From a virus (taxonomy: Duplodnaviria; Heunggongvirae; Uroviricota; Caudoviricetes), in the IMG/VR virus record IMGVR_UViG_2880412407_000002: 64,000 bases of DNA; one strand, written 5' to 3'. Position numbers and translations under genes: made by a program. Under the pieces are notes generated by a model, which saw only the letters and a program-made list of their open reading frames with translations, had not been told where the DNA came from and made no database searches. Below, piece after piece: positions 21,264-22,334 of this stretch. Within the stretch, counting starts at the first letter, position 1, and the number at the start of each line of letters is the position of its first letter.

Positions 21264-21300
21264 ACAATTAAAAACTGTTTTGTGTCAACAGTTTTTAATT
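21264..21300. promoter_or_regulatory. Perfect 15-bp inverted repeat with 7-bp spacer, candidate left operator or terminator
   Basis: caattaaaaactgtt ttgtgtc aacagtttttaattg. Confidence 0.45.
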
Positions 21301-21353
21301 GTTGTTTTGGGCAAAAAAATCCCTCGAAAGAGGGAGTATGAAAATTGTTCAAC

Positions 21354-21641
21354 TCAGATAGAGAAGGGAAATTGTCGCCGAGAATGTGTCACGCTTACAA
21401 TCTCAATGCTTGAAGCAGCTACTCTGTACAGGATTATGTAGTTAGGGTGGGTCACGATCTCTCTCAATCCAGAAACCCGTTCGCTTGGTGGATATAAGTA
21501 CGGATGCTCAGATAGAGGTAATACCGATGTTTCAATGCGTATTTTTAGTCTACGTGCTGCCGGTGGGTTCTCCTTGGCGATGTAAGTTATGATCTGGCGC
21601 AAATCATCGCGAGCAGACGGTAGCCATAAAATGGGTAACAT
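21354..21641 (-). CDS. ParE/RelE-family type II toxin
   Basis: 95 aa; start overlaps the upstream antitoxin stop; C-terminal YIILYRV...IEIVSVTHSRR typical of the fold. Confidence 0.65.
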   Translation of the reverse strand: MLPILWLPSARDDLRQIITYIAKENPPAARRLKIRIETSVLPLSEHPYLYPPSERVSGLREIVTHPNYIILYRVAASSIEIVSVTHSRRQFPFSI

Positions 21642-21832
21642 TACTCGCTCTTGTTAGTTACAGCAATTTGAGCAATAAGATTTTCCATTTCAGCCATTAC
21701 CTCGTCATGTGGAATTGCGGGGCGAGTGTCTGCAAGGCTTGACGTTACTTTAGTGCGCAACCATTCGTTGTAACTGTTTTCTTGTTCGGTAGTTTCGAAT
21801 TCTGAAACTATCGGAGAAAGGGCTGTACCCAT
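21641..21832 (-). CDS. Putative ParD-like antitoxin
   Basis: 63 aa, immediately upstream of and overlapping the toxin. Confidence 0.5.
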   Translation of the reverse strand: MGTALSPIVSEFETTEQENSYNEWLRTKVTSSLADTRPAIPHDEVMAEMENLIAQIAVTNKSE

Positions 21833-21859
21833 GGCATAACTCCTCTTCTTGTACTGTGG

Positions 21860-22261
21860 TCACGCCCGGCGGCTTTTTTGTGCCGCCAGCCACCTAGCAA
21901 TGGTTTCTTCCATTGATTTTTTCTTGTCTTTGATTTCTTGAAGCATTTTTTCTTGGTCTTCCTCAGGAAACGCACTAAAAGCTTGGAGCAGTTCGCGTTG
22001 GCGAGGACCAATTTTCATCGTGTCAGGGGTGAAAATTTGCTCACACTCTTCAGGAGGCAATAAAAACCAATGCAATGGATGCCCTGAAACCTCAACCAGT
22101 TTATCCAAACTTGAGGCTTTAGGTGTAGCCTTACCGCTGACCCATTGTTGAACAGTTTGTTGTGTCACACCAATTCTACGGGCAAGCTCAGCCTGGCTCC
22201 ATCCAGTTTCCTGAAGAAGCTTGCTGATTCTGTACATAGATACTTCTAGGGCGCTCATCAT
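21860..22261 (-). CDS. Prophage repressor, XRE-type HTH (DicA/CI-like), no peptidase domain seen
   Basis: N-terminal HTH ISKLLQETGWSQAELARRIGVTQQTVQQW; divergent from cro-like gene. Confidence 0.75.
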   Translation of the reverse strand: MMSALEVSMYRISKLLQETGWSQAELARRIGVTQQTVQQWVSGKATPKASSLDKLVEVSGHPLHWFLLPPEECEQIFTPDTMKIGPRQRELLQAFSAFPEEDQEKMLQEIKDKKKSMEETIARWLAAQKSRRA

Positions 22262-22299
22262 TATTCAATTTTACAGGTAAATACTGTTAAAAGCACCAC

Positions 22300-22334
22300 A
22301 ATAAAAAACTGTTGATTGCATACAGTTTTTTATT
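22300..22334. promoter_or_regulatory. 13-bp inverted repeat in the repressor/cro intergenic region, candidate operator
   Basis: aataaaaaactgt tgattgcat acagttttttatt; shares ACTGT/ACAGT arms with 21264..21300. Confidence 0.45.

Follow-up and report, generated by a model that had tools for sequence, protein, structure and literature searches.

We interpret two palindromes flanking a paaR-paaA-parE operon as the core of the left and right operators (OL and OR) in a CP-933M/Sp4-type (paaR1-paaA1-parE1) lambdoid prophage immunity region, a reading to which we assign a probability of about 0.85. They lie in a stretch of viral DNA of 64,000 nucleotides, hereafter the window. Judged from the comparison of related loci, the conserved working unit is a 15-bp box, ACA-N9-TGT, and not the 39-bp palindrome, so that each palindrome arm represents one site. 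Operators of this sort are an ordinary kind of element; for this widespread prophage repressor, a full-text literature search on the exact box sequences, with incomplete coverage of the literature, retrieved no prior description of them. The original prediction had already suggested left and right operators, and this reading now gains support from the promoter register, cross-genus conservation, covariation with the recognition helix and the precedent of prophage CP-933P.

Results

Two related palindromes flank the repressor operon

Each of the two sites is a perfect inverted repeat, its 15-bp arms separated by 9 bp (ACAATWAAAAACTGT-N9-ACAGTTTTTWATTGT). The left one (21264-21302) has the arms ACAATTAAAAACTGT and ACAGTTTTTAATTGT, complementary at 15 of 15 positions, and the right one (22298-22336) the arms ACAATAAAAAACTGT and ACAGTTTTTTATTGT; the two palindromes differ at a single arm position, mirrored in both arms. 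The original prediction had correctly described the left repeat as a perfect 15-bp one but had ended it at 21300, and it had recognized the right repeat as a 13-bp one at 22300-22334, which is too short on both sides. That the two share the same core arms proved accurate apart from the one mirrored difference, as did their placement, the left repeat beyond the toxin-antitoxin pair and the right one in the repressor/cro gap. A degenerate 39-bp pattern, with at most 3 mismatches, occurs at these two places only in the 64 kb, and its mean count in dinucleotide-preserving shuffles was 0.00 (n=100). A chance origin of both palindromes is thus excluded. The general box ACA-N9-TGT shows no overall enrichment in the window (11 observed, 15.4 expected). 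Pairs of boxes 23-25 bp apart were found three times for 0.025 expected, with a maximum of one in any of 200 shuffles.

Boxes and predicted promoters are interleaved at the proposed OR and OL

In its fuller form the box is two-fold symmetric, ACA(A/G)(T/G)-N5-(A/C)(C/T)TGT, and neighbouring boxes stand 24-25 bp apart from centre to centre, about the spacing of neighbouring lambda operators. OR comprises three predicted boxes, OR3 (22273-22287, ACAGGTAAATACTGT), OR2 (22298-22312, ACAATAAAAAACTGT) and OR1 (22322-22336, ACAGTTTTTTATTGT), the third of which, OR3, had been absent from the original prediction; OL comprises two, OL1 (21264-21278, ACAATTAAAAACTGT) and OL2 (21288-21302, ACAGTTTTTAATTGT). 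At both PR and PL, the −35 hexamer lies within the 9-bp spacer and the −10 hexamer directly adjoins the promoter-proximal box. On the minus strand, the promoter scan returned PL as TTGACA-18-TAGATT (10/12 matches), with the −35 hexamer (21283-21288) between OL1 and OL2 and the −10 hexamer at 21259-21264; OL1 fills the spacer between the two hexamers and OL2 lies upstream of the −35. A TAG-type −10 also follows the OL box in Salmonella (TAGATT) and Klebsiella (TAGCCT), and each of the five loci analysed keeps TTGAC in its OL spacer, the remainder of which is variable.

At OR, on the plus strand, the predicted PR has its −35 hexamer, TTGATT (22312-22317), in the spacer between OR2, just upstream of it, and OR1, and a weak −10 hexamer, TAGGCT (22336-22341, 3/6 matches), which overlaps the end of OR1 by its first T. 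OR1 occupies the interval between the two hexamers. The register of TTGATT-18-TAGGCT is identical to that of PL, but the promoter scanner did not accept it. The 18-bp spacer is long at both promoters. TTGA is kept at the PR −35 position in 5/5 homologous loci, and the −10 hexamers of the homologues (TAGTCT, TACTCT, TAGTAT, TAATAT) keep the form TAnnnT. For PRM, a candidate −10 hexamer, TAAAAT (22268-22273, minus strand), was read from the sequence 6 bases before the repressor ATG, and TAAAAT or TAGAAT stands at about the same distance from the ATG in the homologous loci displayed. The A of the repressor ATG is the seventh base downstream of this hexamer, and the repressor mRNA is thus probably leaderless. 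The three boxes have offsets of −75, −51 and −26 from the repressor ATG; OR3 overlaps PRM, and the centre of OR2 lies at about −44 from the PRM start. OR3 is identical in five E. coli variants.

Altogether, repeated two-fold boxes occupy the divergent repressor/cro gap, interleaved with the PRM −10, PR −35 and PR −10, as in a lambdoid OR, and a second cluster of the same boxes brackets the −35 of the leftward early promoter, as in a lambdoid OL. In the OL allele of Sakai Sp4, which is probably common to many E. coli copies, the spacer is 10 bp and the arms match at 14/15 positions, indicating that the exact operator geometry is not strictly fixed.

The genes around the sites

Just before OL, an intrinsic terminator found by the terminator scan (TCCCTCTTTCGAGGGA followed by T7; 21320-21335, minus strand) ends the repressor-paaA-parE operon, an arrangement also seen in Salmonella. 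The operon, on the minus strand, encodes a ParE-family toxin of 95 aa (21354-21641; Pfam ParE_toxin, E 2.9e-17; ParE2, PDB 5cw7, E 3e-36), a PaaA-family antitoxin of 63 aa (21641-21832; Pfam PaaA2, E 5.6e-19) that is 70% identical over 56 aa to the PaaA2 of CP-933P, and a PaaR1-type immunity repressor of 133 aa (21860-22261; Pfam HTH_3). The latter matches ECs_1069 from prophage Sp4 (CP-933M) of O157:H7 Sakai at 100% identity. It combines a 434-like HTH, for which 434 repressor was the best PDB match (phmmer, E 3e-5; TQQTVQQ aligned to TQQSIEQ), with a PaaR2-like C-terminal half (residues 37-133, 42% identity over 98 aa, E 2e-20); Peptidase_S24 was not among its Pfam hits. On the other side of OR, the plus strand encodes a YdaS/Cro-like HTH protein of 90 aa (22370-22642; Pfam YdaS_toxin, E 8e-10) and a YdaT/CII-like regulator of 141 aa (22626-23051; PDB 3c4r and 8bt1, E ~1e-83; Pfam YdaT_toxin). 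The recognition helix of YdaS, AQQTVWQ, has the same Gln-Gln…Gln pattern as that of the repressor, and YdaS is therefore probably a second binder of the same boxes. Beyond PL, the leftward operon contains DUF1391/YdfA, the DicF sRNA (Rfam, 77 bits), DicB, DUF1482 and an exonuclease.

The boxes are conserved across genera

Isolated phage genomes gave only flank matches at the DNA level and protein relatives of at most 54% identity, none of them with this immunity region, and the comparative loci were therefore drawn from bacterial genomes. In Salmonella, Klebsiella, Pluralibacter and Morganella, the repressors are 68-80% identical to that of the window and have the same QQTVQQW helix. Their ACA-N9-TGT boxes stand at identical offsets, −75 and −51 from the ATG, and are joined by the −26 box (L001, L003, L007), which has a degenerate end, GGT for TGT, in Morganella (L010). 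Each locus also has a second pair of boxes, 23-24 bp apart, past a variable set of cargo genes and 507-1582 bp downstream from the start codon of the repressor. An equivalent of OL was found downstream of the repressor operon at L001, L003, L007, L010 and L020. Over 25 boxes, the three positions of the ACA/TGT ends are conserved in 50/50, 50/50 and 49/50 cases, and the centres are A/T-rich and variable. Compared with the window, the homologues differ at 0-1 of 18 positions in the box ends and at 11-16 of 34 outside the boxes. The same pattern holds within E. coli: in the intergenic variant L013, which is 87% identical, no change falls inside the boxes (0/45) versus 16/63 outside (Fisher p = 1.4e-4).

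A scan of the genome collection with the repressor alignment added five full-length relatives, from Rahnella, Klebsiella spallanzanii, Pectobacterium, Citrobacter and Arsenophonus; the other 44 matches covered the HTH only, came from Firmicutes MAGs and were left aside. The Citrobacter locus was omitted from the locus analysis, its start-codon search having run into an upstream ORF (L019). In Arsenophonus the repressor is 48% identical, the helix is unchanged, and the box type is kept at both OR and OL. A search for the palindrome in related immunity regions, which had been proposed with the original prediction, recovers its 15-bp boxes; conservation does not extend to the complete 39-bp palindrome.

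The box type changes with the recognition helix

Loci with the QQTVQQ helix, in six genera, have the common box type ACA(A/G)(T/G). With a QQSVQK helix (L005), ACACTTTTAAAGTT-type boxes are found at both OR and OL, and with a QQTVQR helix (L016), ACAC(A/G)…(C/T)GTGT boxes, again at both. The OR of a further locus (L009) has the box type of L016; its OL was not found within its short contig. Loci with a QQTIQK helix (L017, L018) have AACTT…AAGTT-like boxes at OR, the only operator considered there. As in lambdoid operators, the box sequence is therefore specific to the immunity type and changes with the recognition helix, at OR and OL together in L005 and L016.

Discussion

The perfect pairing of the 39-bp palindromes could suggest a hairpin, be it a terminator, an RNA stem-loop or a DNA cruciform, instead of protein-binding boxes, and on the plus strand the scanner indeed flags a terminator-like element of 16 pairs at 21264-21302, followed by the tail TGTTTTGGGC. 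We consider this very unlikely, because the complementarity of the arms is not conserved: Klebsiella has 10/15 at OR and 11/15 at OL, Salmonella likewise has 11/15 at OL, and pairing is incomplete even in the Sakai allele described above. Moreover, the inner sequence of OL2 is inverted in the E. coli variant L013, so that the arms are no longer mirror images, yet both boxes persist with unchanged spacing. No gene on the plus strand runs into the OL palindrome, the OR palindrome is without a T-tail, and it is the G+C-rich hairpin at 21320-21335 that actually terminates the operon. A similarly poor case can be made for passive remnants of a duplicated promoter cassette, devoid of regulatory binding. 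The PL segment, read on the minus strand, agrees with the PR segment, read on the plus strand, at 82% over 44 nt, promoter hexamers included, as a duplication would leave them; however, a passive copy would decay evenly, whereas the box ends are invariant across genera and the spacers differ, and heteroimmune relatives have replaced the boxes at both places together.

Who binds the boxes must also be considered. Classical type II toxin-antitoxin operons are autoregulated, and a review reports that the paaR2 promoter is partly repressed by the PaaA2-ParE2 complex (PMC4803016). Sites for PaaA-ParE are nonetheless the least credible reading of the palindromes, because homologues without paaA-parE in Salmonella, Klebsiella, Pluralibacter and Arsenophonus keep the OR and OL boxes; in addition, PaaA has no DNA-binding domain (PMC8630535). 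That only the Cro-like YdaS, or another factor, binds the boxes and that the 133-aa repressor reads something else is improbable in our opinion. YdaS has a QQTV recognition helix too, and the exact recognition sequences of PaaR2 and YdaS were left undetermined in CP-933P (PMC8630535). Against this, the box type follows the repressor helix in Q-class loci despite a differing Cro helix, as in Klebsiella, where Cro has MQQSVSL and the repressor TQQTVQQ; no other repeated motif is common to OR and OL; and a pair of boxes at PL without a nearby cro gene is the normal arrangement for control by the repressor.

We therefore favour operators read by the repressor, and propose the following scenario. 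Every arm of the palindromes corresponds to one box, and a single repressor dimer probably occupies it. Binding to OR1, which fills the PR spacer, would block PR and hence ydaS/ydaT, the 'lytic' direction. From OR2, given its position upstream of the PR −35 and at about −44 from the PRM start, PRM could be activated. OR3 overlaps PRM, whose predicted start is the repressor ATG, and would provide negative autoregulation of the repressor. At OL, the two boxes bracket the PL −35, and their occupation would silence the leftward operon (DUF1391/YdfA, DicF, DicB, exonuclease). Recognition would be 434-like, Gln34, Gln35 and Gln39 of the helix TQQTVQQ reading the ACA(A/G) ends, with YdaS (AQQTVWQ) as a probable competitor for these boxes. 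Through the PaaR2-like C-terminal half of the repressor, dimers bound at OL and OR may associate cooperatively, closing a 1034-bp loop that would contain the repressor and toxin-antitoxin genes.

The closest experimental precedent is CP-933P, in which PaaR2 and YdaS footprint on the paaR2/ydaS intergenic region and each repress PR, PRM and the PL promoter beyond parE2; PaaR2 octamerises, and the paaR2 mRNA was shown experimentally to be leaderless (PMC8630535; Jurenas et al. 2021). We recovered the CP-933P (Sakai Sp12) DNA through the primer sequences of that paper. The two regions share the gene order parE-paaA-paaR with divergent promoters and ydaS-ydaT beside it, a toxin-antitoxin pair in the rexAB position, operators (predicted ones here) in the paaR/ydaS gap and at the PL promoter beyond parE, a repressor mRNA that is probably leaderless here as well, and the homologous C-terminal half of the repressor. 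YdaT is about 90% identical, an exact YdaT site is found at the ydaS/ydaT junction, and the PL leader beyond the −10 is homologous. In contrast, the N-terminal DNA-binding domain of the repressor is unrelated (PaaR2 starts MQKKE…), only residues 37-133 aligning, so that the precedent covers the architecture and not the recognition. BLASTP detects no similarity between the two YdaS proteins. The operators of CP-933P are GTTTAGTAA-type 18-bp repeats, as opposed to ACA-N9-TGT here, and GTTTAGT occurs on neither strand in 21200-22400. Given these differences in N-terminal domain, YdaS and operators, the two prophages are to be regarded as heteroimmune. The region thus has the paaR-paaA-parE operon beside ydaS-ydaT but neither whole-length homology to PaaR2 nor its repeat operators, and simple membership of the PaaR2 family was rejected for the DNA-binding half and the operator motif.

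For recognition, the closest solved relative is the repressor of phage 434, whose operators are of the ACAAT-N4-ATTGT type. The two systems have in common a homologous Gln-Gln-x-x-x-Gln recognition helix, half-sites that match (box ends ACA(A/G)T…A(C/T)TGT), an A/T-rich variable box centre and similar repressor and Cro helices. The 434 operators are, however, 14 bp long, with the outer 4+4 bases conserved (reference site ACAATNNNNATTGT; PMC1636474), and the boxes examined here are 15 bp in 25/25 cases, with neighbours 24-25 bp apart; the 434 contact model is therefore transferable by analogy only. Also unlike 434, the repressor has a PaaR2-like C-terminal half in place of an S24 self-cleavage domain, and OL has two boxes, not three.

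In layout, the region resembles the CI/Cro switch of lambda. Its OR has three parts interspersed with the divergent PR and PRM, and the three boxes are placed around these promoters as they are in lambda. The repressor mRNA is probably leaderless, and roughly 1 kb away, past the cargo genes, PL has a second cluster of operators. The lambda operators measure 17 bp, though, neither operators nor proteins are similar in sequence, and a RecA-cleavable domain is lacking here. The leftward operon, with its DUF1391/YdfA, DicF, DicB and DUF1482, recalls the dicB operon (ydfABC-dicF-dicB) controlled by DicA/DicC in Qin. At 28% identity, DicA is weakly related to the repressor of the window. Repressor and operators are not the same in the two systems, and in Qin dicA lacks a neighbouring paaA-parE pair.

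As a more tentative extension, which we regard as possible though rather doubtful, these repressors may form a distinct family widespread in Enterobacterales, in which a 434-like HTH joined to a PaaR2-type oligomerisation domain recognises 15-bp ACA-N9-TGT boxes according to a simple code. Box positions 4-5 would be dictated by the residue at helix position 39 (Q, K or R), making specificity predictable and swappable by a single substitution. The mirror-image asymmetric boxes that form the 39-bp palindromes at OL and OR in this lineage might reflect a dyad-symmetric tetramer or octamer looping 1 kb, so that ParE and the division inhibitors DicF/DicB would be locked together in a single bistable switch.

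The proposed switch reveals no new kind of mechanism. It would control the ParE toxin operon on one side and the operon for the DicF sRNA and the DicB cell-division inhibitor on the other. With the exact boxes and the promoter layout at hand, the CP-933M/Sp4 switch becomes directly testable, as was done for CP-933P, and immunity groups among these prophages could be predicted from sequence. The helix/operator pairs also provide a natural series for the evolution of repressor specificity. Among 5426 complete E. coli genomes, 509 contain the intergenic region over at least 80% of its length, and the carriers include Shiga-toxin-producing O157:H7, O121, O103 and O45 strains.

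Palindromic units flanking the repressor block

Inverted repeats had been predicted on both sides of the repressor block, and both are present, each with 15-bp arms that match perfectly across a 9-bp spacer. The left unit extends to 21302 instead of 21300 (21264-21302; arm ACAATTAAAAACTGT, spacer TTTGTGTCA, arm ACAGTTTTTAATTGT), and the right one, described as a 13-bp repeat at 22300-22334, occupies 22298-22336 with arms that are perfect over 15 bp (arm ACAATAAAAAACTGT, spacer TGATTGCAT, arm ACAGTTTTTTATTGT). A degenerate 39-bp pattern allowing up to 3 mismatches matched these two units only in 64 kb, for a mean of 0.00 in dinucleotide-preserving shuffles (n=100). 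The minus strand encodes a ParE toxin (21354-21641), a PaaA2-family antitoxin (21641-21832) and a 133-aa HTH repressor (21860-22261), and a G+C-rich intrinsic terminator (21320-21335, minus strand) closes this operon directly ahead of the left unit. A YdaS/Cro-like protein (22370-22642) and a YdaT/CII-like protein (22626-23051) are encoded on the plus strand. E. coli O121:H19 and related Shiga-toxin-producing strains have prophage DNA that matches this segment at 100% identity, and ECs_1069, from prophage Sp4 of O157:H7 Sakai, has the same sequence as the repressor. CP-933M is the Sp4 counterpart in EDL933, and the window operon is therefore expected to represent paaR1-paaA1-parE1, the paralogue of Hallez et al. 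2010. This assignment also draws on the report of Jurenas et al. that CP-933M carries a homologue of paaR2-paaA2-parE2 (PMC8630535).

Conservation and covariation of a 15-bp box

Repressor homologues from Salmonella (80% identity), Klebsiella and Raoultella (68%), Pluralibacter (69%) and Morganella (68%) all possess the recognition helix QQTVQQW, and all their loci carry ACA-N9-TGT boxes at positions −75 and −51 relative to the repressor ATG, another at −26 (with a degenerate end in Morganella, GGT for TGT) and a further pair, spaced by 23-24 bp, downstream of the repressor operon. The distance of this pair from the repressor start codon, 507-1582 bp, varies with the cargo genes. Among 25 boxes, both orientations counted, the three bases of the ACA/TGT ends are conserved in 50/50, 50/50 and 49/50 cases; position 4 is a purine (A or G), T predominates at position 5, and the centre is variable and A/T-rich. 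Differences from the window affect 0-1 of 18 positions at the box ends, versus 11-16 of 34 outside the boxes. Many single boxes are nearly self-symmetric, such as ACAGTAAATTACTGT with 14/15 positions, the maximum for a box of odd length. A search of relatives for the same palindrome, the check suggested beforehand, recovers the boxes but not the complementarity between arms, which ranges there from 10/15 to 14/15. Indeed, in an 87%-identical E. coli intergenic variant, changes fall at 0/45 positions in boxes versus 16/63 outside (p = 1.4e-4), and the inner sequence of OL2 (21288-21302 in the window) is inverted, which abolishes the mirror symmetry of the arms. At the Sakai Sp4 OL the arms match at 14/15 positions around a 10-bp spacer, and of 506 E. 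coli copies only 147 reach at least 99% identity with the window OL segment. Such comparisons mark the perfect 39-bp OL palindrome as a lineage feature and the 15-bp box as the selected unit.

Relatives with an altered recognition helix have altered boxes at the same positions. In an E. coli locus with QQSVQK, boxes of the ACACTTTTAAAGTT type occupy OR, and its PL has two more; two loci with QQTVQR (L009 and Rahnella L016) have ACAC(A/G)…(C/T)GTGT boxes, found at both OR and OL in Rahnella; and the OR sites of two with QQTIQK resemble AACTT…AAGTT. The Arsenophonus repressor, only 48% identical overall, still has QQTVQQ, and its locus has retained ACAAG/ACAAT…TGT boxes, both at OR and in an OL pair with a spacing of 23 bp. 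The constant ACA goes with the invariant Gln34-Gln35, and positions 4-5 vary with residue 39 (Q, K or R). Among solved structures the HTH is most closely related to the phage 434 repressor (E 3e-5), whose TQQSIEQ aligns with TQQTVQQ. In the 434 co-crystals of Anderson, Aggarwal, Harrison and colleagues (1987-88), Gln28 and Gln29 reportedly read ACA, and Gln33 position 4. The 434 operators are 14 bp long, with outer 4+4 bases that are conserved and directly contacted (reference site ACAATNNNNATTGT; PMC1636474). As the recognition helix of the YdaS/Cro-like protein is AQQTVWQ, this protein very probably uses the same boxes.

Predicted promoters within the units

The units also contain predicted promoters. 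PL, on the minus strand, consists of TTGACA (21288-21283), an 18-bp spacer and TAGATT (21264-21259), with a promoter-scan score of 10/12; PR, on the plus strand, places TTGATT (22312-22317) and TAGGCT (22336-22341) in an identical register, again around an 18-bp spacer. In both units the −35 element lies in the 9-bp spacer, overlapping one arm by its first T, and the first T of the −10 element likewise belongs to the other arm. Read along transcription, the PL and PR segments share 82% identity over 44 nt. The third box, OR3 (ACAGGTAAATACTGT, 22273-22287), adjoins a minus-strand TAAAAT hexamer (22273-22268), and this TAAAAT/TAGAAT arrangement is also present in homologous loci. The repressor gene opens with tandem ATG ATG (22256-22273 region, minus strand). 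Because only 6 bases separate TAAAAT from the ATG at 22261 and no Shine-Dalgarno sequence precedes this ATG, a leaderless PRM transcript is suggested. The paaR2 mRNA was shown to be leaderless, and lambda cI is cited as leaderless in the same work (PMC8630535).

The Sakai OL allele (L012 2540-2579 versus window 21264-21302) has one additional spacer T and a single substitution in an arm. The extra T would stretch the PL −35/−10 spacer to 19 bp, and the allele may have a weaker PL or changed cooperativity. The untranslated leader between PL and DUF1391 (~21088-21258) is ~90% conserved in heteroimmune phages and prophages, CP-933P included, and could be a nutL-like site. This homology ends just short of the operator, phage matches stopping at 21248 and CP-933P similarity reaching approximately the −10, which places the immunity-module boundary at the PL −10.

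Proposed operators of a lambdoid immunity type

Several readings of these units can be weighed. A function as hairpin or terminator is contradicted by the loss of arm complementarity in relatives. Likewise, an operator of the toxin-antitoxin complex is contradicted by homologues that keep the boxes without toxin-antitoxin genes, paaA-parE being replaced by unrelated cargo genes in Salmonella, Klebsiella and Pluralibacter. Passive promoter duplication is contradicted too, by conservation that is specific to the boxes and by relatives in which OR and OL boxes are replaced in concert. Binding by Cro alone is unlikely. Altogether, the operator reading of the original prediction is supported by box-specific conservation, covariation with the recognition helix and promoter register, and we propose that the units are operators of a common, uncharacterised lambdoid immunity type.

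According to this proposal, repressor dimers would bind in pairs, 24 bp apart, to OR1 (22322-22336) and OR2 (22298-22312) and to OL1 (21264-21278) and OL2, thereby blocking PR and PL. Centred at ~−44 relative to the PRM start, OR2 might activate PRM, which OR3 would switch off at high repressor levels, and YdaS would compete for the same boxes. OL and OR, 1034 bp apart, could be bridged, perhaps via the PaaR2-like C-terminal half; PaaR2 octamerises (PMC8630535). The repressor (21860-22261) lacks a LexA-like S24 self-cleavage domain, and induction, if any, probably involves an antirepressor or another route, not RecA-stimulated cleavage. Its weak relatives include DicA and the Gifsy-1 and Gifsy-2 repressors.

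Transcription from PL would cover DUF1391/YdfA, the DicF sRNA (19631-19682, minus; Rfam RF00039, 77 bits), DicB, DUF1482 and an exonuclease. Since DicF is followed by dicB (19257-19445, minus) and then the DUF1482 gene (19069-19260, minus), this operon resembles the Qin dicB operon, and the operators, if the proposed switch is true, would hold a cell-division-inhibition module silent. A weak STnc100-like match (19468-19617) falls under the gathering score.

Relation to CP-933P and cargo

The C-terminal half of the repressor is homologous to PaaR2 of CP-933P (42% identity, 98 aa, E 2e-20), whereas the N-terminal domains are unrelated and the YdaS proteins share no BLASTP similarity; the window is thus a heteroimmune relative of CP-933P. 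YdaT is ~90% identical, as read off the alignment (E ~1e-83), and ParE matches ParE2 (E 3e-36). On neither strand does 21200-22400 contain GTTTAGT, the operator motif of CP-933P.

The slot between repressor and OL is a moron-insertion position, equivalent to lambda rexAB. Its cargo varies by host: paaA-parE in E. coli, paaA-parE together with a YoeB/YefM pair in L009, and, in the Salmonella, Klebsiella and Pluralibacter loci, unrelated small ORFs, none with a Pfam match.

At the end of ydaS, overlapping the ydaT start codon, TTGATTCATGAAAATCAA (22619-22636) exactly matches the published YdaT recognition repeat TTGATT-N6-AATCAA, and is the sole exact match within the window. The OM site of CP-933P (PRE region) occupies the same place (PMC9986795).
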